Below, in pieces: positions 1,424 through 64,000 of a stretch of DNA of 64,000 nucleotides (positions within the stretch are counted from its first letter, which is position 1; each line of letters opens with the position of its first letter). Origin of the DNA: Patescibacteria group bacterium (lineage in GTDB: Bacteria; Patescibacteriota; Patescibacteriia; UBA10025; JBIOWE01); assembly GCA_044868145.1 (NCBI GenBank), contig JBIOWE010000006.1:284537-348536 (forward strand), in the 5' to 3' direction. The position numbers were made by a program, and so were the translations under genes. The notes beneath the pieces were generated by a model, which saw only the letters and a program-made list of their open reading frames with translations, searched no databases and was not told where the DNA came from.

Positions 1424-1426
1424 GCT

Positions 1427-2011: not shown

Positions 2012-2012
2012 A

Positions 2013-3128: not shown

Positions 3129-4104
3129 TGTAGCGGTTATCGGTACCGGGAATATGGGTAGACACCATATTAGAAACTATTTCGAGATTGAGGAATCGAA
3201 CCTAGTAGCAATATGCGACATTGACCCTAAAAAACAAAAATTGTCAAAAAAATTTAAATGTAAATTTTACAAAAATTACAAGCGAATGCTATTGAAAGAA
3301 AAAATTGACGCTCTTTCTATTGCCGTTCCGACAAACGCACATGAAAAAATCGCCCTTTACGTGCTAAAAAGGGGAATACACGTTTTAGTTGAGAAACCTA
3401 TCGCGTCAACTGAAACTGGTGCAAAAAAAATGATTACTCTAGCGAAGCGATCAAATAGTCTTTTGGCTGTTGGCCATATCGAGCGTTTCAATCCAGGAGT
3501 AAAAAAAATGCAGGAACTAATAAAAAAAGGCGCTTTAGGAAAAATAATCTCAATCATTGCGAAAAGAGTAGGACCGTTTGCGCCAAGAATTAAGGAGGCT
3601 GGCGTATTAATTGATTTAGCAGTTCATGACATAGACATAATTAGCTATTTATTCGGTCAAAAACCATCACACGTTTATGTCAACGGGGGCAATGCCATAA
3701 ACAGAAAGATCGAAGACTATGCAGAAATGTTTTTGAAGTTCGGTAGCAGCTCTGGGTATATTCAAGTAAATTGGATTACGCCGGTAATCATTCGTGAATT
3801 ACATGTAACTGGCACCGGGGGGTACGCGCGTTTAAACTATATTACCCAAGAATTAGATTTTTATAAGTCACATTATAAAGAAGACTTCGATGATTACGGC
3901 GATTTCGTCATTCAATTCGGCATTTCTAAAAAAAAGTCGGTCCCAATAAAAACTGAGGAGCCACTCCGTCTTGAACTAAAATCTTTTCTTTCAAACGTTC
4001 AAAATAAAACTAAACCTGAAGTGACGGGCGAACAAGGGCTGCAAGCTTTGAGTGTTGCTCTGAAAGCCTTAAAAAATGTAAAATATGCGAAAGCTGGACA
4101 ATAA
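3109..4104 (+). CDS. Gfo/Idh/MocA family NAD-dependent nucleotide-sugar oxidoreductase (WbpB-like)
   Basis: N-terminal Rossmann segment VAVIGTGNMGRHH with the EKP motif (VLVEKPIA). Typical 331-aa size. Overlaps the upstream DegT gene. Confidence 0.8.
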   Translation: MQENKINVAVIGTGNMGRHHIRNYFEIEESNLVAICDIDPKKQKLSKKFKCKFYKNYKRMLLKEKIDALSIAVPTNAHEKIALYVLKRGIHVLVEKPIASTETGAKKMITLAKRSNSLLAVGHIERFNPGVKKMQELIKKGALGKIISIIAKRVGPFAPRIKEAGVLIDLAVHDIDIISYLFGQKPSHVYVNGGNAINRKIEDYAEMFLKFGSSSGYIQVNWITPVIIRELHVTGTGGYARLNYITQELDFYKSHYKEDFDDYGDFVIQFGISKKKSVPIKTEEPLRLELKSFLSNVQNKTKPEVTGEQGLQALSVALKALKNVKYAKAGQ

Positions 4105-5050
4105 GGCTGTCCTCGTGACAGGTGGCGCCGGTTTTATCGGAAGCCATCTTGTTGATGCCCTAACTCATGAAAACGTTAAAGAAATTATCATTGTGGACAA
4201 CTTTTTTCTAGGGAAGCGCAGAAACCTTCTCGAGGCAAAGCAAAGTTTTAAAAAGTTGGAAATAATAAAACACGATGCCACAGATTATACTTTCATGAGA
4301 GAATTAATCAGTCGTAAAAAAGTTGACGTTATATTCAGTTTGGCTACAAAAGCGCTCCCCTACTCTTTTACTGACGCTGATGACGCCTACTTTGTGAATG
4401 TAAACCTTGCTAATGTTCTCTTACGACTACTACGTGACCGACTGTTTAAAACGTTAATACATTTTTCATCATCAGAAGCTTATGGATCATCAGAAACGAC
4501 AAGAATGTCAGAGAGCCATCCTTTACAGCCTACAACTCCCTATGCAGCTGGTAAGGCCTCTGCCGACCTGCAGCTTTTGGCGTGGCAGAAATTTTTCGAT
4601 TTAGATATCTCTATCGTTAGGCCATTTAATACCTATGGCCCCCGTCAGAATGAGGGATTATACGCCGGAGTTATACCCATCACTATCAAACGCATATTAA
4701 ACAATCAGAAAACCATTTTGCAGGGCGACGGTAAACAAACTCGCGATTTTACCTACGTAACGGATATTGTAAAAGCTGCTGTGAGTATTTACAAAAAAAC
4801 CTCGACAAAAGGTAAGGTCGTCAATATCGCCAGCGGCAAAGAAATTTCGATACGTACTATCCTCAGATATATTATGGAACATTTGCACTATCGTAGGGGG
4901 ATCATCAGAAAGCCGCAAAGAAGATCTGACGTGCGTCGGCATCGAGCTGACATCCAACTTGCGCGTTCTTTAATTAAATACAAACCATTAGTCGATTTAC
5001 GTACTGGCCTTAAGAAAACAATCAACTGGTATAAAGAAAATATACAATGA
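4085..5050 (+). CDS. NAD-dependent epimerase/dehydratase family protein (nucleotide-sugar 4,6-dehydratase/epimerase-like)
   Basis: VLVTGGAGFIGSHLVDAL Rossmann motif. Catalytic YAAGK (YxxxK). 321 aa. Confidence 0.8.
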   Translation: MRKLDNKAVLVTGGAGFIGSHLVDALTHENVKEIIIVDNFFLGKRRNLLEAKQSFKKLEIIKHDATDYTFMRELISRKKVDVIFSLATKALPYSFTDADDAYFVNVNLANVLLRLLRDRLFKTLIHFSSSEAYGSSETTRMSESHPLQPTTPYAAGKASADLQLLAWQKFFDLDISIVRPFNTYGPRQNEGLYAGVIPITIKRILNNQKTILQGDGKQTRDFTYVTDIVKAAVSIYKKTSTKGKVVNIASGKEISIRTILRYIMEHLHYRRGIIRKPQRRSDVRRHRADIQLARSLIKYKPLVDLRTGLKKTINWYKENIQ

Positions 5051-6162
5051 TTCGACTCATTATACCGGATATAAAATTTAGTGACGTTGCAAAGAATTTT
5101 CAAAAAATCCTCAATTCTGGCAGATTGACGCAAGGAGAATACGTCAAGAAATTTGAAAAAGCAGTAGCTGAATTTGTCGGAACTAAATATGCTTTTGCAA
5201 CTACTTCGGCAACTACAGCCTTACACTTGTCTCTTGTGGCATTGGGGATTAAAAAAGGGGACGAAGTGTTAGTTTCCGATTTCACTTTTCCCGCAACTGC
5301 TAATGTTGTTGTACAGGTAGGCGCTCGACCTGTTTTGGTTGACATACGTCTCGATAGTTTTAACATTGATTTAAACGACCTAAAAAAAAAGATCACGAAA
5401 AAAACGAAAGCTATCATTCCGGTTGATGCTTTTGGCCGTCCGGTAGACATGCCCTCAATAATGAGTATTGCGAAAAAACATAAACTTTTTGTTATTGAAG
5501 ATGCTGCGTGCGCCATTGGCGCTTCATTCGACAGAAAAAAAACTGGTAGCCTTGGCACTGTTGGATGCTTCAGTTTTCACCCGCGAAAGTCAATTACTAC
5601 GGGTGAGGGAGGCATGATAACAACCAATGATGAAAAAGTTGCAAAAAATATTCTTATCTTAAGGAACCATGGGGGAATTTTACAAAAGTCAAAAAGGTAT
5701 TATCAGTATGTTATGGCGGGCTTCAATTATCGAATGTCAGAAATTCAAGCAGCGATGGGCTTGCAACAAATGAAAAAAATCAATAATTTGATATCTCAAC
5801 GAATTAAAATAGCGAGTCGAATGACTCAAAAAATTCAACAAATATCTAATTTACGCCCACCCCTAGAATTATTGAATGAGAAGAATGTTTTTCAATCATA
5901 TGTTACGCTTGTATCAGAGGATATCAATAGAGATCTTGTAATAAAGAAAATGCGAAAAAAAGGTATAGAAACGACGCTCGGGACCTACGCGTTACATGCT
6001 CAACCGTTTTTTATCAAGCATTATCATTATAAACCTGGACAATTGAAAAATTCTTACAAAGCTTTTCTGAAAACACTGACTTTGCCGTTGTATAATACAA
6101 TGACAGCTCAACAAATTAAGTATATCACTAACAACTTGAGAGAGATTCTAACAATAAAGTAA
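5047..6162 (+). CDS. second DegT/DnrJ/EryC1/StrS family sugar aminotransferase
   Basis: TSATTALHLSL, FTFPATAN, VIEDAACAIGAS, SFHPRKSITTGEGG motifs. 4-nt overlap with the upstream gene. Confidence 0.85.
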   Translation: MIRLIIPDIKFSDVAKNFQKILNSGRLTQGEYVKKFEKAVAEFVGTKYAFATTSATTALHLSLVALGIKKGDEVLVSDFTFPATANVVVQVGARPVLVDIRLDSFNIDLNDLKKKITKKTKAIIPVDAFGRPVDMPSIMSIAKKHKLFVIEDAACAIGASFDRKKTGSLGTVGCFSFHPRKSITTGEGGMITTNDEKVAKNILILRNHGGILQKSKRYYQYVMAGFNYRMSEIQAAMGLQQMKKINNLISQRIKIASRMTQKIQQISNLRPPLELLNEKNVFQSYVTLVSEDINRDLVIKKMRKKGIETTLGTYALHAQPFFIKHYHYKPGQLKNSYKAFLKTLTLPLYNTMTAQQIKYITNNLREILTIK

Positions 6163-39630: not shown

Positions 39631-41877
39631 CTACTGCCTTTCAATCAGTGCGGTGTATATTTGATCAGACGTGAGGTCAGCGGAAAACTTGAGCTGATTT
39701 TGAGAAGACTCCCCGCTTTGGCTCCACGCGAGCACGTATTGAGAGGGCAGTCGAAGGAACGAAACCAAGCCTGTCGGCGCAGAACCAGGCTGGCGTTGCA
39801 CGAGAAGAGAATAGGTATCAGTCGGGTGCGTCAAAAAACCCGTTCGTAAGCTAAACGGAAGTTTATAGGAAACTTCGACTGTTGCCTGCTGACCAGGACG
39901 CACAACAACCCAGTTGCCGAACACCGTTTTGCCAAATTCATGTGTTACGCGGGTTTGCGTTCGTTCATCGAGTGAAGGATTTTTCTCAATTGCCAAGAGA
40001 TCTTCGTCTTGCCCCGCATCAAGGTCAGGTTCTTTAAACCTGGATTGCGGAATGACGCTAAATCCTTGAGCGTCAATAAGCTCGCTGCCTTCGGGAACGT
40101 AGAATCGAACGTAGGAGACGTTATCAACGCCCGCAAAAGCATCATTCTTCGAACCGTTATGCACGCGTGTCAATTTAACTGTATCGATAATGGAGCCATC
40201 GTCAAGAACGCGAGCTTCATGGAGAATCAATTGTTGCATTGACGCGTCCGTTTTGCCGCCGCCAATGTTCGTCGTCACCACGGAAAGAAAATCTTTTTCA
40301 GCGGGCAGAATCGCCCCGGACCAACGAAGGTCCTCGATGCGCTGCTGCGTTTCTTGATTTTTGCTGAACAGCAGGAGGTCGCGCTGATCAAAGGAGGTGC
40401 TCAAAGCTCCTAACAAATCAACCAACTTATCAGGACTAACGGAGAAGAGCTTATTTAAAAGCACAGGCAGAAGATCAGCGATGAACGCTTTTGGCTCGCC
40501 ACTCTCTCGATGAGCGTCCGAATAGGATTGTGCGTACGCAACAAAATTTGATGCACTGATGACAGTGCCGTATGGGTCGCGCATATCAATGGACCCGGTT
40601 ACGTCAAGGAGGCGCTCAATAAATGTTGGTGTAAGCGCGATAACACCGTCAACGGACGGTCCGCCGCTTTTTTCGTAAAACCACATTACTTTTTTCGCGC
40701 TCGTAGGAAAATCCGGGAACCAATTCGCGTCTTGGATGTTCCAATACGGATTCACGAGGTGGAGCGGATTCGGGGACACAATCTTTTCAGGAAATTGGCC
40801 GGCGATGTCATAACTTCCGCCGCGTGGCACCTCAATCCTCTCTACTGCGCCCTGGTAAACGTCAATGAGCGCGAGGGAGCCGATAAACCCGCCCGTAGGC
40901 CGAAGCTCACGATTATTTTCAAAAAGCACCAAGTAACGTTGCTGCGTATGTGCGCCAAGCACCGAAAGAAGGGCCTGGGAAGCCTTTTCCAAATAACTGA
41001 AATTGTCCCGAAGGGCTGGCAGTACGCCGGCAAGCGTCTGGAACGTTTCGCGACTAGACTCCGGAATATCTTCAGGGCGAACCAGTGAAAGGTTATCGAT
41101 CGTCACGCGCACGTAATGTTCCAGCAGAGGCAAACGTTCGGTCAAAACCGAAAAGTCCCGTGTTACGGTTTCGTCGGAACCCGGGACGCGCGTATCAATG
41201 GCTTGCAACAAGCTCGCCAATTCCTCCCCTGCTTTACTCATATACTCTCCGGCGGTCAACAAATGCTCTGCGCTACGCGATTCGCTGGAAGCCGCCTTTA
41301 CGATATCAGTTGTGAGCCCGCCGAAGCTGCGGAATTCTTCTTGGGCTGCGACGAAGCCGTTCTTCGCCTGCTCAAAGGTTGATGAGGCTTTATCGTACTG
41401 CTGGGAGGCAATATACTGGGAGGCATCAATGAATTGACCGTATGCATCCGTGCTGGCGCCGAGTACCTTACCTTTCACTTCTTTGGCTTTTTGAATTGCC
41501 GAAACGACAAAAAACGGCACAAGCAATGCGCATAAGAGCAAAACAAACACCAGAAGATGTTTGAACCGGGGCGTAGACAACTTCCATGAAATGTCAGAAT
41601 GATTTTCTTTTCGTTTTTGACCTCCGCGCGGCCGCCGGTGCACAGGCGCGTCTTCTGCCGGCACGGTAAGGTGATGAATGGCTTTCCCCACTGTTTGCGT
41701 GCCCGCGCTAAAAAAGTTTTCCAACGCTGACTGGCGCACTGTCTGCTTCGGCTGCGAAGATTTGTCAGTCATTTTGCGAAGATTCAAAACATTTTCCTCG
41801 GGGACGCCAATCCCGGCGCGCGGCTTTTGAATACGCACGCTCCGTGAACCGTTTGTTTTGTGATTAGTCCGATTCAT
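39631..41877 (-). CDS. DUF4012-domain extracytoplasmic protein, membrane-anchored (cell-envelope polysaccharide locus protein)
   Basis: N-terminal basic region plus one TM helix. Core motif QRYLVLFENNRELRPTGGFIGSLALIDV, characteristic of DUF4012. 748 aa. Confidence 0.6.
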   Translation of the reverse strand: MNRTNHKTNGSRSVRIQKPRAGIGVPEENVLNLRKMTDKSSQPKQTVRQSALENFFSAGTQTVGKAIHHLTVPAEDAPVHRRPRGGQKRKENHSDISWKLSTPRFKHLLVFVLLLCALLVPFFVVSAIQKAKEVKGKVLGASTDAYGQFIDASQYIASQQYDKASSTFEQAKNGFVAAQEEFRSFGGLTTDIVKAASSESRSAEHLLTAGEYMSKAGEELASLLQAIDTRVPGSDETVTRDFSVLTERLPLLEHYVRVTIDNLSLVRPEDIPESSRETFQTLAGVLPALRDNFSYLEKASQALLSVLGAHTQQRYLVLFENNRELRPTGGFIGSLALIDVYQGAVERIEVPRGGSYDIAGQFPEKIVSPNPLHLVNPYWNIQDANWFPDFPTSAKKVMWFYEKSGGPSVDGVIALTPTFIERLLDVTGSIDMRDPYGTVISASNFVAYAQSYSDAHRESGEPKAFIADLLPVLLNKLFSVSPDKLVDLLGALSTSFDQRDLLLFSKNQETQQRIEDLRWSGAILPAEKDFLSVVTTNIGGGKTDASMQQLILHEARVLDDGSIIDTVKLTRVHNGSKNDAFAGVDNVSYVRFYVPEGSELIDAQGFSVIPQSRFKEPDLDAGQDEDLLAIEKNPSLDERTQTRVTHEFGKTVFGNWVVVRPGQQATVEVSYKLPFSLRTGFLTHPTDTYSLLVQRQPGSAPTGLVSFLRLPSQYVLAWSQSGESSQNQLKFSADLTSDQIYTALIERQ

Positions 41878-41885
41878 AAGCTATA

Positions 41886-43004
41886 TTATATCTGCAAATA
41901 CAAGGATTGGGTAGTGGTAGCAAGCTTATCCCAACTAAATAGGGAAACGCGCTTTAAGCCCCGTTGAATCATTATCTGGCGTACGTTGGCGTCTTCTAAA
42001 ACGGCATAAATCGCAGCGGCGATATCTTCCTCGCTTTGAGGATCGCAATATCGCGCGGCGTCACCAAGCACTTCAGGCAGAGACGAGCTTCGCGCCGCCA
42101 CAACCGGGACGCCGTGCGCCATCGCTTCCAACGGAGGCAAACCGAACCCCTCGAGCAGTGAGGGAAACGTATAAACGGAGGCATGTTCATAGATCGCCGG
42201 CAAGTCCTTATCCGTCACAAAACCAGGAAACAAAACCCGGCCCTGCAAATTGAGCAAGGCAACTTCTTTTTTCAGACGCTCGTAAAAGTAATCATGCTTC
42301 CCCACAAGAACAAGATAATGCGACACCCCCGACTCAATTAATAGTTTATAGGCACAGATCAGGCGCTCAAGATTTTTGTGCGGATATGCATTACCCACGT
42401 ACAAGATGTACGGCTTCTTGATCCGGTACTGGTTCAGAACGGTTTGCGATACCGTCGCTATGCTGCTCTGTTCTGGATCGACCGCCTCATGCGTCACGAC
42501 GATTTTGTGTGCAGGCAGCCGAAAAGATTCAATCAGCTGCGCTTTCGTGTACTCGGAGACAGTCAAAAGAGCTCGTGCGCGCCGGACAGCGCGGCGAATC
42601 ACCCAACGATACCCAAAAAGCTTCATCGCATACATCAGCGGGCCAAGGGTGGTCGCTCGTTTTGTCGGATATTGCAAGAGAATAAGATCGTGAATCGTTA
42701 CGATAAATTTACCGAAATACAAAATCGGCACGTTAAAATGCGGAAAATGCATAACCTGAATACGCTGTTTATAAATCGCCAAGGGCAGGTACACTTGTTC
42801 TTTCACGGTGTACCATCGGTAATCGGCAAGAACTTTCCGAAAACGAGGGTTACGCGGCTGATAATCCGCCCAGTTGTCTCCCCGCAGGAAGATAACATAA
42901 TCGTTCGCCGTATCAAGCCGTTCAAGATTCTCTATCAGTTTTTGCGTATAACGACCAAGGCCTTTGCCTATGGGTCCATAAAATCGTGCATCTATCCCTA
43001 TGCG
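41886..43004 (-). CDS. glycosyltransferase family 4
   Basis: MRIGIDARF start. C-terminal [20 protein letters not shown]4 signature. The ORF extension to 43064 is rejected. Confidence 0.75.
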
Positions 43005-43012
43005 CATAGTCG

Positions 43013-44149
43013 TTACGATGAAAAAGAAAAAATCCCGAGCGTTTCCCTGGCTGTTCGATCCCAAGTATATTGTTTTGACCGGTCCCTGCCTTTGGCTATG
43101 AGAGCGCGACGGACTCGCTCATCAGACAACACTGTGTCGAGCGCACGAGATACCTCCGCGACGTTTGTTGGATCAACCACGAGCCCTGCATCACCAACGG
43201 TTTCAACCAGTGAAGACGTGGCTGAGACAATAACCGGTACACCGGAAGCCATCGCCTCAAGTGGCGGTAAGCCAAACCCTTCGTACAACGACGGATAAAG
43301 GAATGCGCTACTATTGCGGTACAAGCTAGGCAAGCTGCGCTCTTCCCTGTACAACAAGAACTGGATGTCTTCACGTTCATTGACGAACCTTTTCAGATGC
43401 TGAAAGTAACCATGCGAATGAGCGTACGGATCGCCGATAAGCAACAGACGAAGCGTCCCCTTATGCGTCTTTTTATAACTCATAAAAGACTGCAGGAGAA
43501 ATTCAATATTTTTCCTTGGCTCGATATTTCCGACGTACAGCACGTAGGGCATCGGCGAATCTATTGGTTTTGGTGTTTGTGCATTATTTTCAGCCGAGAA
43601 ATAAGCTGTATCAACCCCGAGCGGCGTGATTCGGATTTTTTTCTCATCAACGTTGTACGCACGTACGAGGTCATGCTTGGTTTGCTCGCTCGGCACAAGG
43701 ATTGCATCAGCTTTGTTCAAAAGATGACGCGGGCGGATAAACCAATGCCACAGACGCCGTTTCCAAGGATACAATGCCGGGAAAAAGCGAAAAGAAAGGT
43801 CGTGAACAGTCAGGATAAAACGTACGCGTTTACTCATAGATAAGAAACCGACATTTGGCGCAAACAAAATATCAACCCCACCCAGCATTCGATCGAGCGA
43901 TGGCCAGTTGAACAAAACAAAAAAAGCATGTAATGCTTTATTGGGGTAACGCAGGTGACGTAACTGAACGCGGCTGCCTTCGAACCGTTTTAACCAAGGC
44001 AGGTCAGCATGGCGTATGCCTGTGTAAAACAAAATGTATGAGTTATCAGTGTCAATTGCCAGCAAGTGTTCCAGTAGATGTTTTGTATAGTAACCAACGC
44101 CGCTTACGCGAGAATCGACCAAGGAAGAAATATCAACGGCAATGCGCAT
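43013..44149 (-). CDS. glycosyltransferase family 4
   Basis: [10 protein letters not shown] start. [20 protein letters not shown] signature. Confidence 0.75.
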
Positions 44150-44781
44150 TAGACTCCTTCACGGTTGGGTCCTCCGCGAAGATAATATGCGATGCCGAGC
44201 ACGGCAAGACTGAGCAAGAAACCAACGACCCCACCGATGAGCGTGGTAACCCAAACCATTGGACTTTTTTGTACAATAACAGGCTCTGACCCAACAACAT
44301 TAAATAGTCCTTGGCCTTCTTCCGACTGGTTTGAGGCGACCGCTTTGTCCTGAACAATTTTAATGATTGCCTGCGAAAGAGTCGCCGCAGTCTGATGGTC
44401 GCGTTCTTTGAAACGGACAACAATATTTTGCGGGGAAAATTGCTTTGTTTTGAAGCGAGACGTAAACCCTTCAATGCTCGAGATCTGCGGATCAATGTTG
44501 GCCGCATGGTAAATCTCAAGCAACACGGATGGAGTCATGAACCAACTCATTACCGTTTGCGAAAAAAGATCGGACGCTTGTATGGCATAATACCCATCGT
44601 ACTGGTAGGCCGAGGTGTTCTGACGAATTGTGCGGTTGATGGAAAACGAAATAGAAGTATCGTACACCGGCGCACGAGTTGATGAAACGAAAAACGAAAT
44701 GCCCGCGCCAGCGATCGTCAAAACGACAACTATCCAAGTCGCCTTTTTGAAATATTGTCGGAACTGCGTATTGATAGTCAT
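44149..44781 (-). CDS. Wzz/chain-length-determinant-like protein (two TM helices flanking a periplasmic domain)
   Basis: N-terminal TM (WIVVVLTIAGAGISFFV) and C-terminal TM (VTTLIGGVVGFLLSLAVLGIAYYL). Cluster context. Confidence 0.45.
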   Translation of the reverse strand: MTINTQFRQYFKKATWIVVVLTIAGAGISFFVSSTRAPVYDTSISFSINRTIRQNTSAYQYDGYYAIQASDLFSQTVMSWFMTPSVLLEIYHAANIDPQISSIEGFTSRFKTKQFSPQNIVVRFKERDHQTAATLSQAIIKIVQDKAVASNQSEEGQGLFNVVGSEPVIVQKSPMVWVTTLIGGVVGFLLSLAVLGIAYYLRGGPNREGV

Positions 44782-44797
44782 ATGGATTCAGTATAGA

Positions 44798-45895
44798 TTA
44801 TTTTGAAAATTCTTTCCACTTTGTTCCAATAAAGTCACTGATGCGTTGTCGAAAGGATGCCTCATCGAATGTTTCCGCGTGCTGACGCAAAACTGAAGGG
44901 TCAAACTGATGAGGCTTGAACCGAATGACTGCATCAGCGAGCGCCTCCCATGATTGCTCGTCAAACAAAACTCCTGTTTTTCCCGGGATAACACTTTCAA
45001 CAGCGCCGCCAGACCCATAGGCAATAACCGGCTTACCCGAAGCCATTGCTTCAAGGGGTGTTATGCCGAAGTCTTCCTCTTGCGGATGCAAAAGCGCTTT
45101 TGCACCAGCGAGGAGTTTTTTCTTTTCCGCGTCGCTCACATGGCCGAGAAACGTAATATTACTTTTTGCCATTTCGCGTAGGCGTTCCTCCTCCTCGCCC
45201 GTGCCCACGATTTTTAAGGGCATGTTCAACTGATTAAACGCTTGCACAGCGAGATCGACGCGCTTATACGGCCGCAATCGCGAGATAAGAAGAAAATACG
45301 CACCGGGCTCGGTGCTCATCTGGTAATCGGCCACGCGAATCGGCGGGTAGATAACGTCACTCTTTCGCTTGTAATATTTTTCAATGCGCCGGGCGATAAA
45401 ATGAGAATTCGCAATAAACGCGTCAACCCGATCAGCGGCCTGTCGATCCCAAACCCGAAGATAACTACGATACAACTGCGAAAACCGTCCGACAAGGCGC
45501 TTACGCTCAAGAGCGTCAATCACGATCGTATGGTCACTCCACAAATACCGCGTTGGCGTATGGCAATAGCAGATATGCAACGTGCGAGGCCCTGTGATCA
45601 CGCCTTTTGCTAGGCCTGAACTGTCGGACAGGACAACGTCATAATCAGAAAGATCATAACTTTCTGTGGCTGAAATCATAAGGGGCAAGTACCAGCGAAA
45701 CTTTTTCCGAGCAAACGGCATATGAGCCAAAAATGACTCTCGTACATCTTTCCCTTCGAAAAGCCGATGCGTCCCCGCTTGGTCGTAAATCAACGTAAAA
45801 ATAGGGCTTTGGGGAAACATATCGGAAAAAACCTTCAGGACCCGTTCCGCCCCTCCTAATTGATTTAAATGATCATGCACCAACGCAACTTTCAT
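44798..45895 (-). CDS. glycosyltransferase family 4
   Basis: MKVALVHDHL start. [21 protein letters not shown] signature. Confidence 0.75.
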   Translation of the reverse strand: MKVALVHDHLNQLGGAERVLKVFSDMFPQSPIFTLIYDQAGTHRLFEGKDVRESFLAHMPFARKKFRWYLPLMISATESYDLSDYDVVLSDSSGLAKGVITGPRTLHICYCHTPTRYLWSDHTIVIDALERKRLVGRFSQLYRSYLRVWDRQAADRVDAFIANSHFIARRIEKYYKRKSDVIYPPIRVADYQMSTEPGAYFLLISRLRPYKRVDLAVQAFNQLNMPLKIVGTGEEEERLREMAKSNITFLGHVSDAEKKKLLAGAKALLHPQEEDFGITPLEAMASGKPVIAYGSGGAVESVIPGKTGVLFDEQSWEALADAVIRFKPHQFDPSVLRQHAETFDEASFRQRISDFIGTKWKEFSK

Positions 45896-45901
45896 AGATA
45901 A

Positions 45902-47293
45902 TTATGCCGCGGAACGAGCCAAGAAAACGACGAATGGTGTTTTCGCTAAAATTCGTAAATCGAACGCGAGGCTCCAGTTCTCAATATAGTAAATATCCAG
46001 TTTCGCTTCGTCTTCAAACTTTAGCTCCGATCGACCAGATATTTGCGCGAAGCCCGTCAGCCCGGGTTTAATGGTTAGCAACTTTTTGTGGCTCTTTTCA
46101 TACTTGTCCACCTCTTCCGGCTCATGCGGTCTTGGACCCACAAGACTCATCTCACCTTTTAGCACGTTAAAAAGCTGCGGCAACTCATCAAGACTTGATT
46201 TCCGCAGCAGTCGGCCGAATCGCGTGATGCGCGGATCATTTTTTATTTTAAATAGTGGGCCGTCGGATCGCTCGTTAAAATTTACCAGTTGCTTTTTGAG
46301 CGCATGCGCGTCTTTAATCATTGAACGAAATTTGTATAAGGTAAATCTATTGCCCCGCTCTCCCACGCGCTCGAGCTTTACGAAAATTGGTCCTTCGGAA
46401 TCAATGCGAATGAAGAGCGCTATCAAGAGAAAGATAGGCGTAAGAACCAAGAGCAAAAAGGAAGAAAAAACGAGATCAAAAATCCGCTTCAAGATTCGAC
46501 CCCATCCGTCAAGTTTGGTCCGTTTCACCTCAATCAATGGGATGTCGGCAATTGTGGTGACTTCAACGTTCGTTGCTTGAGTTTCGTACAGGTCGGCGGC
46601 GTATTTAAAAACAACATGATGCTCATCGCAAAAACCTTTGATTTGTAACATCTGCTGTTTGGAAAGAGCGGGGTCGGCCACAATGACTTCATCGACCGGC
46701 TGGAGCTTCATGCGCTCCTTCAGCGTGGTAATCGTTGCATCATCGACAGTAGAAAAACGGTCAATAACCTTGTACCCATAGGACGAATTGCGATGCAAGA
46801 TGGTAAGAACGTTTTCCGTTATTTCATCGTTCCCAATGATAATCACTTGATGACTGCCCACGCCTCTTCGCAAAAGCGCGTGCTGCACCAATCGTATTGC
46901 AAGCCGTCCAAGACTAACGAGTACAATAGAAAAAATCCAGCCGGCGATGATGATAAAACGAGAAGAGAAAAGCTCTCGTTGGAAGAAAATGACCAGAACT
47001 ACGACCGTAATGCTTGCCGTGCATGCGATGAAGATTTTTCCGAGTTCAATATTTCGCTTGCCAAACGAGTGAGCCGCATACAAACCTGAAATCGCGAAAA
47101 TACTCAAAAAAATCACTCCAACAACAAGAGTGATCCGCAAAAATTCTGAGAACGCAATATCATAGAAAACCGGACGAATGCCGGTTACTATCGGGGTAAA
47201 CCGCAGACTATATGCTGCAATGCCGGCGAGGAGAACCATGCAAAAATCGATCGGTACGAGAATTGCCGTAAAAAATAATTCAGATTTCTTCAT
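45902..47293 (-). CDS. initiating polyprenyl-phosphate sugar phosphotransferase (bacterial sugar transferase family, WbaP/ExoY/CpsE-like)
   Basis: N-terminal TM helices. C-terminal catalytic domain motifs (RFTLYKFRSM, DELPQLFNVLKGEMSLVGPRP). The start is set at MKKSELFF; the 5-prime ORF extension to 47632 is antisense to rnpB and rejected. Confidence 0.8.
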   Translation of the reverse strand: MKKSELFFTAILVPIDFCMVLLAGIAAYSLRFTPIVTGIRPVFYDIAFSEFLRITLVVGVIFLSIFAISGLYAAHSFGKRNIELGKIFIACTASITVVVLVIFFQRELFSSRFIIIAGWIFSIVLVSLGRLAIRLVQHALLRRGVGSHQVIIIGNDEITENVLTILHRNSSYGYKVIDRFSTVDDATITTLKERMKLQPVDEVIVADPALSKQQMLQIKGFCDEHHVVFKYAADLYETQATNVEVTTIADIPLIEVKRTKLDGWGRILKRIFDLVFSSFLLLVLTPIFLLIALFIRIDSEGPIFVKLERVGERGNRFTLYKFRSMIKDAHALKKQLVNFNERSDGPLFKIKNDPRITRFGRLLRKSSLDELPQLFNVLKGEMSLVGPRPHEPEEVDKYEKSHKKLLTIKPGLTGFAQISGRSELKFEDEAKLDIYYIENWSLAFDLRILAKTPFVVFLARSAA

Positions 47294-47344
47294 AATACTG
47301 CTTACCCCTTTGTATGTGTAAAGGGGGTGCTGGAAAAACGTTAA

Positions 47345-47753
47345 TGCCAAGGTAAGCCTGTAAGCCGAATTCTGTTCTCCTACTTGCAAGCAAGCGGAAG
47401 AGATAATTATCTCTCTGGGACCGCCATTGCTGGCGGCCTCTAGCGCCCGTTCGGGCTTGCACCGGAGAGGGTTTTCCACGCTCCTATCTCGCGATAGGTG
47501 CGCGTGAGCTCTTACCTCACGATTTCGCCATTGCCTGATCCCACCTCGTCGGCGGGCCATTGGCTGTGTATTTTCTGTTGCACTTTCCCTGGGCTTCAAT
47601 GCTTTACAGTTCTCGAGAGATCCGCAAAGCACCTACTCCCGGTCGCCGTTAGCGACTCTCCACTTCTCGCCTCGTCGGCGAGGGTGTTCGGACTTTCCTC
47701 CCCACCTTCCCCTTGCGGAAAAAGGCGAAGCAATTATCCAACTTACCTTGGCA
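47345..47753 (-). ncRNA. rnpB: RNase P RNA, bacterial type A
   Basis: The minus-strand sequence contains GGGGAGGAAAGUCCGAACACC (P4 5-prime strand), AGUGCAACAGAAAA, GGGAUCAGGCAAUGGCGAAAUCGUGAGGUAAGAGCUCACGCGCACC and ACAGAAUUCGGCUUA (P4 3-prime strand). P1 forms by pairing of CCAAGGUAAG with CUUACCUUGG. About 408 nt. Confidence 0.85.
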
Positions 47754-47790: not shown

Positions 47791-47835
47791 CAAGATAAAA
47801 TAAAAAGCGTGACACATATTTCTTGTTATCACGCT
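47790..47835 (-). terminator. intrinsic terminator of plsC
   Basis: The minus-strand hairpin AGCGTGA..TCACGCT includes the stop codon and is followed by TTTTATTTTATC. Confidence 0.55.
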
Positions 47836-48452
47836 TTTAGTCTATAAATCGCATCGTACGCTTTTTGGGCTGCAGCCTCGTATGAACCTCCAAGCTCTTC
47901 AGACTCAATCGGTTGTCCAAAACGAATCTCAAGAGAGCCACGACCAATGAGCCAACGCAGGATCATAGACATCCATCCACGAAAGGTAATTTGGCGCTTG
48001 TAGCCATCCACATCAATAAATACGGGTACAACAGGCCGCTGCGACTGTAAAGCAATCAGTCCGACACCGGCATGGAGCTTTTTGTGCTCGGGCCTCGAGG
48101 AACCTTCGGGAAAGATCAGCGCCCATTCTCCGTTCTGCACCAACTTCACCACTCGGCGCAGTAAACCAATGTCGCTTTTCCCTTTTGCAACGTACAGGAC
48201 GCGCATCCCTGCGAAAAGCCGGCGGGCAAGCCAATTCCGACCAAGGTCAGCCCTCGCGAGAAAATAGATCTTACGGCGCGTTGCTTTATAAATACAGTAG
48301 CCAATCGCCGGCGGGTCAAAATACGATTCGTGGTTAGAAGCAATAATACATCCGCCCGCGTGCGGAAGGTTTTCTGCACCAATGATGCGAAATTTCTTAA
48401 AGGACACATCAAACACCAATCGTATCAAAAACAGCGATACGGAATAAATCAC
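47829..48452 (-). CDS. plsC: 1-acyl-sn-glycerol-3-phosphate acyltransferase (lysophospholipid acyltransferase family)
   Basis: HxxxxD motif (ASNHESYFD). FPEGSSRP motif. Confidence 0.75.
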   Translation of the reverse strand: MIYSVSLFLIRLVFDVSFKKFRIIGAENLPHAGGCIIASNHESYFDPPAIGYCIYKATRRKIYFLARADLGRNWLARRLFAGMRVLYVAKGKSDIGLLRRVVKLVQNGEWALIFPEGSSRPEHKKLHAGVGLIALQSQRPVVPVFIDVDGYKRQITFRGWMSMILRWLIGRGSLEIRFGQPIESEELGGSYEAAAQKAYDAIYRLKA

Positions 48453-57436: not shown

Positions 57437-59026
57437 TTAGTTCGCCAGAAGGGGTTGCCCGGTCATTTCTGGCGGTTTCGGTAAATGCATTTTCTCCAAG
57501 ATAGTCACCGTGACGTCGGACAAAACGCCCGCGGGCTGGAGCAAACTTAAATCGTGCGCCATGATCATATCTTTGAACGGGGTAACACCTTCTAAATCCT
57601 TGCTGACAGCAATAAAGGGCACAGGATTAACGCTGTGCTCTTTATCCATGACGCCGGTTTGAACATTCAAAAGCTCTTCCGCGTTGCCGTGGTCGGAGGT
57701 AATAAACGCAATGCCGTCGAATTGCAACGTCGCGTCCACTATTTGCCCGACGCATTCGTCAACAACTTCGATTGCCTTGAGCGTCGCTTGAATGTTGCCG
57801 GTGTGAGCCACCATGTCCGGGTTCGCGAAGTTGACGACGATAAATCCGTATTTGCCTTTTTTCATTTCCTTAATTAAGCGATCGGTGATTTCGTAAGCGC
57901 CCATTTCAGGTTTTTGGTCGTAGGATGAAACGCTGGGGGAAGGAATGAGCACGTTGTCCTGGTCGTCAAATGGCTTCTCCCGGCCGCCGTTCAAGAAATA
58001 GGTGACGTGCGCATACTTTTCCGTTTCTGCGATATGTAATTGCGCAATCTTTGCCTGCGCAATCACCCATGCGAGCGGTTGCTCGATGTATTGCGGCTTG
58101 AACGCGACGATTACCGGTAAGTCTCTATCGTATTCGGTCATCGTCACGAAAAACAAATTACGCATGTAGGTCGCGCGCGGAAATTTCTCGAATCCGGGAA
58201 GGATAAAAGCTTTCGTCAATTGGCGCGAGCGGTCGGGACGAAAATTGAAAAAAATCACCGCGTCCCCGTCTTGTACGGTTGCGACCGGCTTGCCGCCCTC
58301 CTGAATAACGGTTGGTAAAAACTCCTCATCGAAGTTTTGCTGAGCATACGATTTTTCGATCGCATGCAACGGGTTTGCGTCAACACGGTCGCCGACGCCA
58401 TCCACCATTGCTCGGTACGCTTTTTCTTCACGATCCCAACGATTATCTCGATCCATCGCGTAGTACCGACCAACAAGCGTAGCAATTTTTCCAACTTTTA
58501 CCTGCTTTATCTTCGTATTCAATTTCTGTACGAAATTGACTCCGCTCTGCCGAGGCGCGTCTCTACCGTCGAGTATCGCATGGATTGCCACGCGCGAAAG
58601 TTTTTGCTTCTTGCAGAATTCCAGCAAAGCGAACAAATGCTCGAGAGAGCTGTGGACGCCGCCCGCGCTCAACAACCCAATAAGATGCAGGGTGGATTTT
58701 CGTTTCCGCGCATGATTCGCGGCTTGCAAAAAAGCTTCATTCTCAAAAAACGATCCATCAGTGACAGAACGGGAGATCCGGGGCAGATCCTGGTAAACAA
58801 TTTTCCCCGCGCCGAGGTTCAAGTGACCCACCTCGGAATTTCCCATTTCTCCCCACGGAAGTCCGACTGCTTCGCCTGAGGCGTGCAGCGTCATGGTTGG
58901 ATAGCGATCAATCAGGCTATCGATGTATTCCGTATTGGCCACGGAAAGAGGATTGCCCTTTGAAGGAGGCGCGATGCCCCACCCGTCAAGAATAATCAAT
59001 ACCGTTGGTTTTACGACTTTTGGCAT
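57437..59026 (-). CDS. gpmI: 2,3-bisphosphoglycerate-independent phosphoglycerate mutase
   Basis: ILDGWG N-terminus. Catalytic Ser motif GNSEVGHLN. DGRD, SDHGN and DMVAH metal-binding motifs. 529 aa. Confidence 0.9.
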   Translation of the reverse strand: MPKVVKPTVLIILDGWGIAPPSKGNPLSVANTEYIDSLIDRYPTMTLHASGEAVGLPWGEMGNSEVGHLNLGAGKIVYQDLPRISRSVTDGSFFENEAFLQAANHARKRKSTLHLIGLLSAGGVHSSLEHLFALLEFCKKQKLSRVAIHAILDGRDAPRQSGVNFVQKLNTKIKQVKVGKIATLVGRYYAMDRDNRWDREEKAYRAMVDGVGDRVDANPLHAIEKSYAQQNFDEEFLPTVIQEGGKPVATVQDGDAVIFFNFRPDRSRQLTKAFILPGFEKFPRATYMRNLFFVTMTEYDRDLPVIVAFKPQYIEQPLAWVIAQAKIAQLHIAETEKYAHVTYFLNGGREKPFDDQDNVLIPSPSVSSYDQKPEMGAYEITDRLIKEMKKGKYGFIVVNFANPDMVAHTGNIQATLKAIEVVDECVGQIVDATLQFDGIAFITSDHGNAEELLNVQTGVMDKEHSVNPVPFIAVSKDLEGVTPFKDMIMAHDLSLLQPAGVLSDVTVTILEKMHLPKPPEMTGQPLLAN

Positions 59027-60582
59027 AGGTTCGTCTTTCGCATAACGGACGGCGGATCAATGCCCATGAGCGATAAAATTGTTGGCGCGACGTCCGCGAG
59101 AATGCCGTGCCGTTTCAATCGCACGTTGCGGAATCGCTTTGAGATGACGAAAAACGGTACTGGATTCATGGAGTGCTTCGTTTCAATTTCGTCGCTATCA
59201 GCATAAAGCATCTGCTCGATATTTCCATGGTCAGCAGTCAAGATGATTGTCCCGCCTTTCGCGTTTGTGGCCGGCACAACTTGTTTCAAGTAAGAATCAA
59301 CGTACTCGCACGCTTTCACCGCAGCCTTGAGATTACCACTATGGCCAATCATATCCAGGTTCGGATAGTTCACAAGGATAAAATCATGCATTTTGCTTTG
59401 AATCGCCTTCAGCAGCGTGCGGGTCAACTTTGCGCCACTCATTTGCGGAACTTGATCATACGATTGGACGGAAGGCGATTTAATCATAATACGCTCTTCT
59501 CCCGCGACTGGCTGCGCATAGCCGCCGTTAAAAAAATACGTGACATGCGCAAACTTCTCCGATTCTGAAATGAACAATTGGCGCCTGCCGGAGAGCACAA
59601 TCGGTAAACTTTTTTCAACGCGCACGCTGGGAAAGGCGCAGAGGATGTTCGGCAGATCTGGGCCAACTTCCGTCAATGTCACGAATAAAAAATTTTTCAA
59701 TATTTTTTTTCGCGCGAATCCGGCAAATGTCTTCTTATCCTGCGTGAACGCTTTTGTGAGTTGGCGCACGCGGTCGGACCGCAAATTAAAGAAAATAGCT
59801 GCATCGTTGTCCGCAATGCGTGGAAAAATTCGACTGTTATGGCGCAAGACGGTTGGCGTTAAATACTCGTCACTTTCTCCACGGTTATACCCGCGAACAA
59901 TTGCTTTCTCCACGTTGCCGGCGCGCAAGCCCTCACCAAGCACAAGCGCGTCGTACGCTTGCCTCGTGCGTGACCACTCTTTAATCCGGTCCATCGCATA
60001 ATACCGGCCCATCACTGTCCCGATTTTGTAATCACTCGGCAAGATACGGCTGAATTTTCTAAGTGTTGCGACGGAAGCGTACTTCGGCGCGTCGCGACCG
60101 TCCGTGAACAAGTGCAAATACGCATTCTTCACGCCGGAGACCCGAGCCAGCGAAATCAGTGCAAGCAGGTGGTCCGGATCCGCATGCGCGCTTTGGTCGC
60201 CGGTAAAGAGCCCTATCAAATGCAAATTCGATTTGTATTTCTTCACGTGCATGATGGCGGCATGGAGCGCTGCGTTCTTAAAAAATGTTCCATCGTTTAT
60301 GCTGTGGGAAATCCGCATCGCGTCCTGTTCAACTATCCGCCCGGCGCCAATATTCAAATGCCCGGCTTCGGAGTTCCCTGCTTGATTTACCGGCAAACCA
60401 ACTGCTCTCCCCGATGCCTCCAAGAGCGCGAAGGGATGACGTTCGAACAATGAATCAAGAAAGGGTGTTTTTGCTTGTGTAAAGGGGTTGCCGCGCTTCT
60501 CTTTTGTATAGCCCCAACCGTCAAGAATAACAAGAACGAACGGTTTTTTAGTACGGCCACTTTTTTTCATACGAGTTCCCAC
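59011..60582 (-). CDS. gpmI: second 2,3-bisphosphoglycerate-independent phosphoglycerate mutase paralog
   Basis: ILDGWG, GNSEAGHLN, DGRD, ADHGN and DMIGH motifs, all intact. Overlaps the downstream paralog by 16 nt. Confidence 0.85.
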   Translation of the reverse strand: MGTRMKKSGRTKKPFVLVILDGWGYTKEKRGNPFTQAKTPFLDSLFERHPFALLEASGRAVGLPVNQAGNSEAGHLNIGAGRIVEQDAMRISHSINDGTFFKNAALHAAIMHVKKYKSNLHLIGLFTGDQSAHADPDHLLALISLARVSGVKNAYLHLFTDGRDAPKYASVATLRKFSRILPSDYKIGTVMGRYYAMDRIKEWSRTRQAYDALVLGEGLRAGNVEKAIVRGYNRGESDEYLTPTVLRHNSRIFPRIADNDAAIFFNLRSDRVRQLTKAFTQDKKTFAGFARKKILKNFLFVTLTEVGPDLPNILCAFPSVRVEKSLPIVLSGRRQLFISESEKFAHVTYFFNGGYAQPVAGEERIMIKSPSVQSYDQVPQMSGAKLTRTLLKAIQSKMHDFILVNYPNLDMIGHSGNLKAAVKACEYVDSYLKQVVPATNAKGGTIILTADHGNIEQMLYADSDEIETKHSMNPVPFFVISKRFRNVRLKRHGILADVAPTILSLMGIDPPSVMRKTNLCQKS

Positions 60583-61892: not shown

Positions 61893-63089
61893 TCATTTTT
61901 CGTTTTTACTTTTTACTTTCTTCATAAGCGGCGCGATTCCGGGAAGCGTTTTGCCTTCCAGGAATTCGAGCATCGCGCCTCCGCCTGATGATAGAAAAGA
62001 AAAACGCTTTCCAAGTCCGAGGCCGTGTATTGCGTCAAGCGTTTCGCCGCCCCCAGCGACAGAAAACGCTTTTGTGCTCGCGACGGCTGATGCGATTTTT
62101 TTCGTGCCGTTCGAAAAACGTTCAAGTTCAAACCAACCCATTGGTCCGTTCCAAACAACAGTTTCCGCCTTGTAGATTATCGTTTGAAATAAATTGATTG
62201 TGTCTGGCCCGACGTCGAGAATCGTTTCATTTTCCCCAACATTCGCGACTGCGCACGTTCGCCCATGTGCCCGTTCACTGGCTTCTTGAGCGACAACCAC
62301 ATCAACAGGGATATGCAATTTGTTATCAGTGAGAGGCAAATGTTTCGCTTGCTCCATCATGGTTTCTTCGATCAATGATTTTCCAACCTGTAATCCTTGC
62401 GCTTTCAGAATGGTGTTCGCGAGCGCGCCGCCAAGCAACAAGTAATCAACTTTTTTCAACAACTCTTTGATCACTCCGAGCTTCGTGGAAATCTTCGCGC
62501 CACCGATAATGCCGACGTATGGCCGCTTCGGTGCGCCAACGAGCTTCGACAGCTCAGCGACCTCATGCGCCAACAGAAATCCCGCGTAACTCGGCAAGGT
62601 GGCTGCGATGCCCGCTGTCGAGGCATGCGCTCGGTGTGCTGAGCCAAAAGCGTCATTCACGTACACATCGCCGAGACGAGCCAACTCGCGGATAAAACCA
62701 GGGTCATTCGTTTCTTCGCCTTCGCAAAATCGTATGTTCTCAAGCAAGAGGATTTGTGATTCTTGTAACGCGCCTACGGCGTGTTCCGCTTCTTCCTCGC
62801 CAGCGCAGTGCGGCACATAGCTTATAGACTGTCCGGACAGAAGTGCTCTTAGTGTATCAAAAACAGGCTCCAACCGATATTTGCCTTGTCTGGTTCCGTC
62901 GGGCCTGCCTAAATGACTCAACAGTATTATTTTTGCTTTCTGTTTCACGAGATACTGGATCGTCTCCAAGGCCGCCCGAATCCGCATGTCGTCATCAACC
63001 TTGCCGTTACTGATCGGGACATTAAAATCCACTCGCACGAGCACACGCTTTCCTGCCACGTCCGCTTCTTGTATTGTCCGCAACTTCAT
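61893..63089 (-). CDS. pgk: phosphoglycerate kinase
   Basis: KRVLVRVDFNVP N-terminal signature. LSHLGRP. GGGA motifs. The start is set at MKLRT. Confidence 0.9.
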   Translation of the reverse strand: MKLRTIQEADVAGKRVLVRVDFNVPISNGKVDDDMRIRAALETIQYLVKQKAKIILLSHLGRPDGTRQGKYRLEPVFDTLRALLSGQSISYVPHCAGEEEAEHAVGALQESQILLLENIRFCEGEETNDPGFIRELARLGDVYVNDAFGSAHRAHASTAGIAATLPSYAGFLLAHEVAELSKLVGAPKRPYVGIIGGAKISTKLGVIKELLKKVDYLLLGGALANTILKAQGLQVGKSLIEETMMEQAKHLPLTDNKLHIPVDVVVAQEASERAHGRTCAVANVGENETILDVGPDTINLFQTIIYKAETVVWNGPMGWFELERFSNGTKKIASAVASTKAFSVAGGGETLDAIHGLGLGKRFSFLSSGGGAMLEFLEGKTLPGIAPLMKKVKSKNEK

Positions 63090-63116
63090 GGAGTAAAACA
63101 AAAATTTCTACCATAA

Positions 63117-63145
63117 ATTATAGCAGAAATTTGAAGAAAAGTCAA
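63117..63145 (-). promoter_or_regulatory. putative sigma70 promoter of the pgk-eno-gpmI operon
   Basis: Minus strand reads TTGACT-17 nt-TATAAT, ~30 nt upstream of the pgk start. Confidence 0.55.
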
Positions 63146-63292
63146 AACCGAATCAGTGGCAACTGATTCGTATTCGAATTGTTATGTACCGAAAAAACCC
63201 TTTCCGAAATCAGGAGGGGTAGATTCTAGTCACTTAATTTTTTTGGATAGTAGCGTCTTTCGCGGACCACCTTGATCCGTGATTATATTACA

Positions 63293-64000
63293 TTAATACT
63301 TTGGTCGCGGCATTCCAACCTTTGTCGGCCCTAGCAATCCTGCGTTATCTACTGGCGTTCTTTGGAGTTTCGGATTACCCGAAGGAAGTGAGTAACTATT
63401 CAAGGCACCTCCAACAATTTCATCTCTCACCTCTCCAGCAATGTCTCTAGCTATATCTCGAGTGGTATTGGGGGGTCCGATAACTTTCATCGCACGTAGT
63501 GCCCCCAGAAACGGAATTGCTGCTGAGACGACATTATAGGCATCACCCCAAGTTCCCTTGCCCTGGGCTATCTTGTAAATTGATTCTCCTGCACCGGCTA
63601 TACCCATGATAAGGCTTGCTCCAGCGAAGGGTAGATTATTAATAAAATCGTCAGAATCAATTCGACCACTCTTCGCAAGGTCGCTAGCACTCTTATGGCG
63701 CGCAAAATACTGTCCAAGATTCATTGCCGCAGCTAAGCTGGGCTGTCCATAGGCATAGGGTTGCTCCGGCGACATACTAGTGGTTTTCGATAGTCTGGCA
63801 ACCGTCTCCATGTGGATTCCCCCACTTATTGCTAAGCTCTGTGCCAGGCTCGTAACGAAAGAGGTTGGCATTGCTACCGCATCTATTGTCGCCGTTATTA
63901 CAACTTCCTGAAGCACGGTAGTTCCAATTACGGGAGTAAACCCTGGCAATTCCTGAAACCCGGTCGGGTCAATGAAGTTGGTCGGGCTATTGTTGACGTA
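63293..64000 (-). CDS. C-terminal end (5-prime truncated by the window edge) of an RHS/YD-repeat or polymorphic-toxin-like protein. It carries the DPxG(L/F) boundary motif, then a ~220-aa variable C-terminal domain with glycine-zipper segments
   Basis: The frame is open to the window edge. YVNNSPTNFIDPTGF matches the conserved RHS core-end motif (Y..NNP...IDPxGL). The downstream domain is Gly/Ala-rich (LIMGIAGAGESIY, IPFLGALRAM). Confidence 0.5.
   Translation of the reverse strand, partial: YVNNSPTNFIDPTGFQELPGFTPVIGTTVLQEVVITATIDAVAMPTSFVTSLAQSLAISGGIHMETVARLSKTTSMSPEQPYAYGQPSLAAAMNLGQYFARHKSASDLAKSGRIDSDDFINNLPFAGASLIMGIAGAGESIYKIAQGKGTWGDAYNVVSAAIPFLGALRAMKVIGPPNTTRDIARDIAGEVRDEIVGGALNSYSLPSGNPKLQRTPVDNAGLLGPTKVGMPRPKY

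Follow-up and report, generated by a model that had tools for sequence, protein, structure and literature searches.

RHS- and Tc-type protein shells with swappable C-terminal tips are well known, and tips that cannot be recognised are common. The wall-associated RHS toxin WapA of Bacillus subtilis is exported by Sec from a single-membrane bacterium, with no dedicated secretion machine; it has wall-binding repeats, not SpvB or FG-GAP domains, and a tRNase tip, and its immunity gene, wapI, is immediately downstream. The Rhs effectors of type VI secretion also have a downstream immunity gene, and the tip of one of these effectors, Tse5, is a pore former. In TcC proteins of Tc toxins, the conserved motif PxxxxDxxG precedes the cleavage site; 97.9% of their variable regions are within 201-400 amino acids (aa), 65.5% of the clusters of variable regions have no recognisable domain, and no immunity proteins have been found at Tc loci, which agrees with targets outside the producer's species (PMC7861908). 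RHS toxins are already on record in genomes of the candidate phyla radiation (CPR) as well: the Saccharibacterium 'T. rhizospherense' has an RHS/YD toxin of 2487 aa that is predicted to be secreted, with PA14 and galactose-binding domains and a neighbouring immunity gene (PMC6031116). Here we analyse an RHS gene that begins beyond the edge of a 64,000-nucleotide stretch of DNA ("the window") from a Patescibacteria group bacterium (contig JBIOWE010000006.1, positions 284,537 to 348,536). A first-pass annotation, made from the letters of the window, had described its end as the tip of an RHS polymorphic toxin with a glycine-zipper domain and no obvious immunity gene.

Our view is that the tip is quite probably the C-terminal cargo of a secreted 2254-aa RHS toxin of this CPR bacterium, and that the toxin resembles a fused TcB-TcC ('BC') component. 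This view draws on features that can be observed directly: the domain order, the motif at the core boundary, the junction between a linker and a module within the tip, the uniqueness of that module, and the lack of an immunity open reading frame (ORF) downstream. The architecture itself is not new.

The complete RHS gene and its domains

From the window edge at 64000 to a TAA stop codon at 63293-63295 (minus strand), the reading frame is open for 235 codons, and its first residues are YVNNSPTNFIDPTGF. An exact look-up of the product of pgk, the next gene downstream, retrieved a 60.9-kb Logan contig (L001). Positions 9090-21197 of L001 match window positions 64000-51893 over 12,108 nucleotides (nt) with 0 mismatches and 0 gaps, so L001 is a valid 9.1-kb upstream extension of the window. 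The complete RHS gene is at L001:3033-9797 and encodes a product of 2254 aa; by tblastn, window positions 64000-63296 map to aa 2020-2254 of this product.

An identical protein (P0001) is encoded on a 397,665-bp NCBI contig, along with an identical enolase. P0001 is annotated from Met100 and is 2155 aa long. The annotated start omits aa 1-99 (L001:3033-3329), and these include a signal-peptide-like N-terminus (MKVANCFVLATFLIITLVPSSIQAPEAQA). We compared the RHS protein with four homologues: P0002 (57% identity), P0003 (58%), P0004 (49%) and P0005 (44%). Since similar N-termini are kept in P0002, P0003 and P0004, the public annotation of P0001 probably begins too late.

In the full protein, Pfam identifies SpvB at aa 81-251 (E = 1.8e-16), four FG-GAP_3 stretches (E = 4.2e-16) and RHS_repeat (PF05593, E = 3.5e-27), and NCBIfam identifies YD_repeat (TIGR01643, E = 6.6e-10) and Rhs_assc_core (TIGR03696) at aa 1947-2033 (E = 2.7e-16; 59.8 bits, with a cut-off of 32.5). 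TcdB_toxin_midN (PF12256) is a precomputed annotation on the identical protein P0001. From the N to the C terminus, the order is a signal-peptide-like segment, an SpvB/TcB-like region, FG-GAP, RHS/YD repeats, the Rhs core and a tip of 220 aa. Among sequences in the PDB, the RHS part matches Tse5, RhsA and Tre23, and the N-terminal part matches YenB (aa 71-132) and SpvB. In the Pfam scan of the full protein, which found SpvB, FG-GAP and RHS_repeat only, there was no PAAR or VgrG-interacting N-terminal domain. The first-pass annotation had recognised the C-terminal tip of an RHS/YD core from its last residues and had suggested looking upstream for YD repeats. They are present, and the upstream extension also has RHS_repeat, SpvB, FG-GAP and the full Rhs_assc_core, which bears out that assignment.

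A predicted site of self-cleavage

The last 15 codons of the Rhs core (aa 2020-2034, the residues given above for the window edge) are at window positions 63956-64000 on the minus strand, as placed by translation, TIGR03696, the PDB alignment and tblastn. The core ends in ...RYSYVNNSPTNFIDPTGF, F2034 is its last residue, and Rhs_assc_core stops at this DPTGF boundary. Directly before the tip, the cleavage motif PxxxxDPxG(F) reads P2025-TNFI-D2030-PT-G2033. Both the motif for the end of the core and the coordinates of the partial ORF had been given correctly in the first-pass annotation.

In our search of the PDB, the end of the core aligns residue by residue with a solved Rhs-family protein. 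One chain of this protein, 8h8a, terminates in ...IDPTGF. A longer chain, 8h8b, has APTGF at the matching position, and its sequence runs on past the boundary. We infer that the two chains may be a self-cleaved protein and a cleavage-dead mutant, as this is the pattern that would be expected. In TccC3, the catalytic aspartates are D651 and D674 (PMC7861908). The upstream aspartate aligns with D2003 of the RHS protein, and D2003 and D2030 are our candidates for the catalytic residues. Because the motif and the aspartates match those described for TcC, and because 8h8a ends at the same place, we predict autoproteolysis after F2034.

A tip in two parts

The roughly 220 aa after the core had been taken as a single domain. 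The length is right, and comparison with P0002 divides the region in two. Identity to P0002 is 74-88% over aa 1955-2100 (it is 84% for the 50-aa stretch from aa 2051), and then drops to 22, 16, 14 and 3% after aa 2101. Because identity collapses near aa 2100, we split the tip into a conserved linker of 65 aa and a variable module of 155 aa.

The linker (tip aa 1-65, protein aa 2035-2099, QELPGFTPVIGTTVLQEVVITATIDAVAMPTSFVTSLAQSLAISGGIHMETVARLSKTTSMSPEQ) is encoded at window positions 63761-63955 on the minus strand. It is hydrophobic (GRAVY +0.45) and acidic (pI 4.6). With HMMER, P0002 matches aa 1-81 of the tip (E = 2.1e-16), and the opening motif of the linker, Q-x-[LI]-P-G...L-[QE]-E-V-V-I, is common to P0005 as well. 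The variable module (tip aa 66-220, protein aa 2100-2254) is encoded at 63296-63760, also on the minus strand. It is basic (pI 9.4, as compared to 8.1 for the whole tip and 4.8 for the shell) and rich in small residues, with a Pro/Gly-rich tail. It contains two moderately hydrophobic segments (tip aa 104-125 and 141-160) and one candidate for a strongly amphipathic helix, TRDIARDIAGEVRDEI.

The C-terminal region varies among close homologues. P0002 has the same linker with a different module, and the studied tip is unrelated to those of P0003, P0004 and P0005. The module of P0002 is weakly similar to the tip of P0004 (E = 2e-6, from blastp against a five-sequence database), which is in turn weakly similar to the tip of P0003 (E = 1e-3, same database). 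Close homologues have tips of much the same length (185-220 aa). Known toxin tips are found in several of the 120 best homologues, among them WHH, Colicin-DNase, Tox-REase, Ntox35, GH-E, NlpC/P60 and M23. Such an exchange of tips as modules is what defines polymorphic toxins.

The tips of P0002, P0003 and P0004 (L002:6631-7242; the end of the gene on L004) form a weakly related family of their own, without a match in Pfam. They share the C-terminal tail GG(T/V)xLPxKxGPxxPIEST(R/H). The P0004 tip has a true G-x3-G-x3-G stretch (GGIAGGIFSGIF), and the studied tip is without one.

Searches for relatives of the variable module

The variable module had no match among 5.8e9 clusters (a word-indexed search with the tip) and no credible relative among 1.84e9 representative proteins (an exhaustive HMMER search, in which P0002 matched via the linker). 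A scan of JGI metagenome contigs with the module found no relative either. For the tip as a whole, there was nothing meaningful in Pfam (DUF6733 at E = 0.21) or in NCBIfam (rOmpA at 12.8 bits, with a cut-off of 2600 bits), and phmmer found no PDB chain under E = 0.3. In the window and in eight fetched loci, we found no further copies of the tip, no RHS fragments and no orphan tips. AlphaFold2, run on the single sequence of the 220-aa tip, gave an all-helical model of low confidence (mean pLDDT 36, pTM 0.27).

Several candidate relationships were rejected. The HMMER match to P0121 (E = 4.5e-4) has an inflated score, because one motif of 28 aa (DI.G.V.D.IVGG....Y..P.G) is matched by each of three tandem repeats in P0121, an unrelated surface protein of 1005 aa. 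The module is not a divergent member of the family of tips from P0002, P0003 and P0004 (blastp E of at least 0.059 with the five-sequence database; hhalign probability of 0.2%). Reading IAQGKGTWGD...IPFLGA as a PT-TG pre-toxin domain was also rejected: hmmscan at E <= 10 gave no PT-TG match in the module or in the tips of P0002 to P0005. At a Halobacteriovorax locus (L006), the match covers just the core motif and a short piece beyond it (33% identity over 71 aa); the tip differs, and is followed by an 84-aa membrane ORF. Finally, base composition does not point to a recent transfer of the tip, as the GC content is 48.3% for the variable module and 50.3% for the core, which is no contrast.

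The region downstream and the target of the toxin

The RHS stop codon is 191 nt from pgk if pgk starts with the TTG at 63101, or 203 nt if it starts with the ATG at 63089, which is the recorded gene call. The first-pass annotation had given 190 nt. The gene for phosphoglycerate kinase (pgk, PF00162; gene call at 61893-63089, minus strand) is a housekeeping gene and sits where one would expect an immunity gene. The spacer holds a terminator-like hairpin, CGAATCAGT-TGCC-ACTGATTCG followed by GTTTTGACTT, at 63139-63170 on the minus strand. It has a stem of 9 pairs, a 4-nt loop and a T-rich tail; the hairpin proper spans 63170-63149, and it probably ends transcription of the RHS gene. The spacer also holds a sigma-70-like promoter for the pgk-eno-iPGM-iPGM genes (TTGACT-17-TATAAT with a TG extension, 11 of 12 positions matching) at 63117-63145, likewise on the minus strand.

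In the spacer (63102-63292), where a small overlooked ORF had been suggested as worth a search, there is none of at least 20 aa on the minus strand; the single ORF within it, of 39 aa with a GTG start, is on the opposite strand. The claim that no cognate immunity ORF lies downstream was thus correct. Immunity candidates are also missing downstream of two related genes. For P0004 (from a Saccharibacteria bin), 138 nt are followed by a RibD_C/DHFR-family gene, a helicase and BipA, and for P0059 (from a Levybacteria bin), the genes downstream are convergent. The genes for P0002 and P0003 are at contig ends, so their downstream context is uninformative.

When toxins that look polymorphic have no immunity genes, the general reading is that they serve as weapons against other species (bioRxiv 10.1101/2025.01.14.632903). 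Because there is no immunity gene here, at P0004, or at P0059, the target of the tip is most likely another species (a host bacterium, a competitor, or a grazer) rather than sibling cells.

On the other side of the RHS gene, L001:2146-2901 encodes a membrane protein of 251 aa that spans the membrane once, has low-complexity stretches rich in Asn and Thr, and is not assigned to a family. This gene sits between a HisKA_7TM histidine-kinase gene and the RHS gene. Because its start overlaps the kinase stop, it seems to be coupled to the kinase and not to the RHS gene. We rejected it as a conserved accessory or immunity gene, as it has no counterpart near related RHS genes.

Glycine content and the activity of the module

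The tip had been called Gly/Ala-rich, with GxxxG-type zipper segments reminiscent of membrane-active toxin domains. The enrichment is real but moderate. The tip is 10.5% glycine and 12.3% alanine (22.7% together), and the variable module is 25.8% Gly+Ala, versus 14.1 +/- 3.2% on average for the window's 38 long ORFs; 49 of the 779 segments of 220 aa from these ORFs (6%) reach the value for the tip. The zipper segments were not found. The tip has 0 occurrences of GxxxG, versus 2.4 expected from its glycine content; it has neither of the published glycine-zipper patterns, (G/A/S)xxxGxxxG and GxxxGxxx(G/S/T); and none of Pfam's glycine-zipper families match it, even at E <= 10. As the motif and family tests both failed, the glycine-zipper membrane toxin is not supported.

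Could the module nevertheless be a glycine-zipper toxin that forms pores or depolarises membranes, like the tips with which some type VI Rhs effectors form pores? We find this doubtful. It would concern the activity of the module alone and is compatible with the tip being the cargo of a TcB-TcC-like protein. The Gly+Ala content of the tip and the module and the high pI of the module (9.4) would fit such an activity, as would the RHS part's resemblance to Tse5 and the helices of the low-confidence AlphaFold2 model. So would two small-residue-rich stretches, NNLPFAGASLIMGIAGAGESI and VVSAAIPFLGALRAMKVIG, which are moderately hydrophobic (Kyte-Doolittle means over 19 aa of 1.3-1.55, Eisenberg <H> of up to 0.61) and have a low hydrophobic moment. 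However, besides the missing zipper motifs and families, both of these segments are under the usual thresholds for transmembrane segments and are interrupted by charged residues, and no PDB chain matches the tip in sequence. Membrane perturbation in some form is our leading guess for what the module does, from composition alone, and it is a tentative one.

How the toxin might work

If the tip is the cargo of a TcB-TcC-like toxin, then Sec would export the RHS protein via its N-terminal signal peptide. The RHS repeats would close into a shell that surrounds the C-terminal 220 aa, and the aspartyl-protease core would cut after F2034 to leave the cargo free within the shell. Upon contact with a target, which would belong to another species, the cargo would be freed, and its effector would be the basic module of 155 aa. 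As for the hydrophobic linker of 65 aa, which is common to different modules, a role in packaging or translocation seems most likely, and the analogy with the entry domains of CdiA-CT makes such a role probable.

Several points weigh against this explanation. The 73 kb that were examined (the window and L001) showed neither a TcA-like partner nor another delivery machine, which leaves the cargo's route to its target unexplained. (Besides the RHS gene, the largest ORF in the window is 748 aa and none is TcA-sized; ten other ORFs of the window were scanned with Pfam. The neighbouring genes that were scanned or have a precomputed annotation are for glycolysis, pyruvate oxidoreductase, glycosyltransferases and a kinase.) The module has no homologue and its AlphaFold2 model, with a mean pLDDT of 36, is unusable; its status as a toxin comes only from its place in the architecture. 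The tip is known from just two identical copies, in the NCBI and Logan assemblies, so selection on it is not measurable. An unannotated 158-aa gene lies downstream of P0005. Because the published Saccharibacteria toxin has its immunity gene next to it (PMC6031116), a missing immunity gene is not general in the CPR, and the immunity gene for our protein could be elsewhere in the genome.

In another explanation, the protein might be a classical contact-dependent toxin that acts within the species, of the WapA or Rhs-CT/RhsI type, and its immunity gene would either lie elsewhere in the genome or be the upstream gene for the 251-aa membrane protein. The polymorphic-toxin architecture and the swapping of tips would fit, the Saccharibacteria RHS toxin is a published case with a neighbouring immunity gene (PMC6031116), and both the upstream membrane protein without a family assignment and the 158-aa gene beyond P0005 might be considered. 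We think that this is rather improbable. The immunity genes of Rhs, WapA and CdiA are directly downstream, and here a terminator, a promoter and pgk are found instead. Also, the 251-aa gene overlaps the kinase stop and is not seen beside any related RHS gene, P0004 and P0059 are without an immunity candidate, and the window has no orphan tip or immunity cassettes.

CPR cells live attached to hosts, and SpvB and FG-GAP domains are found in adhesion-type proteins too. A teneurin-like surface adhesin or scaffold of an epibiont, whose last 220 aa lack effector activity and are a structural plug or a degenerating remnant, would account for a module without homologues, the very low confidence of the predicted fold and the missing immunity gene, but this is improbable, as the frame is intact for 220 codons past the core (by chance, about (61/64)^220 = 3e-5), the whole cleavage motif and both candidate aspartates are kept, the charge contrast between cargo and shell is as expected for an encapsulated cargo, and close homologues swap tips of similar length (185-220 aa) as modules, which argues for selection for diversity and not decay.

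A bolder version of the TcB-TcC-like explanation is that an epibiont uses a self-contained, Sec-exported BC shell to deliver effectors into or onto its host bacterium, without TcA, type VI secretion or an immunity gene, and that the linker is for membrane entry and the module is a new class of effector, one that acts on membranes or manipulates the host in some other way. We consider this version improbable. If it is true, Patescibacteria would have in these proteins weapons that are aimed at their hosts and delivered by a new route. More broadly, there is a CPR clade of SpvB-FG-GAP-RHS proteins whose tips are outside the known toxin families and whose immunity genes are lacking where the context is readable. 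This suggests that the proteins are employed against other species; how their producers interact with hosts is poorly understood. The clean junction between the linker and the module could guide work on how cargo is packaged or translocated. The singleton module of 155 aa is a candidate for a new effector and, if it is toxic, adds a new toxin fold or activity.

Neighbouring genes

The genes near the RHS gene include housekeeping genes (pgk, eno, two for phosphoglycerate mutase of the iPGM type, acetyl-CoA synthetase, pyruvate oxidoreductase and RecJ) and a glycosyltransferase cluster. Besides the identical protein, the best homologues of the enolase are 55-61% identical, and nearly all of the named ones come from Patescibacteria (Uhrbacteria, Magasanikbacteria, Moranbacteria and Pacebacteria). 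The two iPGM genes are tandem paralogs at 57437-60582 on the minus strand. They encode proteins of 529 and 523 aa, with Metalloenzyme and iPGM_N domains, and they overlap by 16 nt. This duplication, within a pgk-eno-iPGM-iPGM cluster, is unusual for a small genome.

The genes at 39631-47632 (minus strand) form a polysaccharide-synthesis cluster: besides a DUF4012 protein of 748 aa, they encode three family-4 glycosyltransferases and a priming transferase (Bac_transf). Shortly beyond the cluster is an acyltransferase gene (47829-48452, minus strand), and the context is an ordinary one for the cell surface. At 47345-47749 (minus strand) is a bacterial RNase P class A RNA (205 bits, E = 4.9e-65), which overlaps the first ~96 codons of the mechanically called ORF at 45902-47632. 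Because the RNA covers the beginning of this ORF, and the Bac_transf domain is at its C terminus, the true start of the sugar transferase is probably further downstream.

P0005 is encoded by one of a tandem pair of SpvB-RHS genes (L007:1-12414; 2160 and 2137 aa). After this pair come the unannotated 158-aa gene and then secretin, T2SSE, PilN and T2SSM. With this layout, such RHS proteins may be tied to a pilus- or secretin-type apparatus in P0005's organism. On L003 (positions 1-5888), the genes directly before the one for P0003 resemble those of type IV pili (T2SSE, T2SSF and N_methyl/LVIVD), together with three small genes that have no annotation.

Comparison with known systems

CdiA-CT, with an N-terminal entry domain and a C-terminal toxin, is organised in an analogous way to this protein. 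Both have a conserved subdomain that is joined to different modules (here, the linker that is shared with P0002). Their sequences are not related, the scaffold here is an RHS shell rather than a filamentous scaffold from two-partner secretion, and it is only by analogy that we suggest entry as a possible role for the linker. Like WapA, the protein has a Sec signal peptide, RHS repeats and a variable C terminus; unlike WapA, it has no tRNase tip and no immunity gene downstream. The toxin from 'T. rhizospherense' is similarly a large RHS/YD protein that is predicted to be secreted, but the protein studied here has SpvB and FG-GAP domains, and no immunity gene is present at its locus.

The type VI Rhs effectors (the "putative Rhs-family protein" of 8h8a/8h8b, Tse5, RhsA and Tre23) have RHS repeats and a core that align with our protein, followed by a variable C-terminal toxin, and the C-terminal boundary, ...IDPTGF, is identical to the chain end of 8h8a. 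On the other hand, our protein has a signal peptide, SpvB and FG-GAP, no PAAR or VgrG-binding domain was found in it, and there is no immunity gene downstream at its locus. Judged by its N-terminal architecture, it does not belong among the type VI Rhs effectors.

The TcB-TcC cocoon of the Tc toxins (YenB/YenC of Yersinia entomophaga, TcdB2-TccC3 of Photorhabdus, and natural B-C fusions) shares the SpvB-like N-terminus, TcdB_toxin_midN, the FG-GAP propeller region, the RHS shell, the PxxxxDxxG motif, a variable region of a suitable length (220 aa), an unrecognisable cargo and the lack of an immunity gene. The differences are that the protein studied here is one fused polypeptide with a Sec signal peptide, that no TcA-like gene was seen in the 73 kb examined, that its host is a CPR bacterium and not an insect pathogen, and that its tip is in two parts with a conserved hydrophobic linker. 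Overall, except for an adjacent immunity gene, the sequence has the testable hallmarks of an RHS polymorphic toxin, and in particular it looks like a fused TcB-TcC component.

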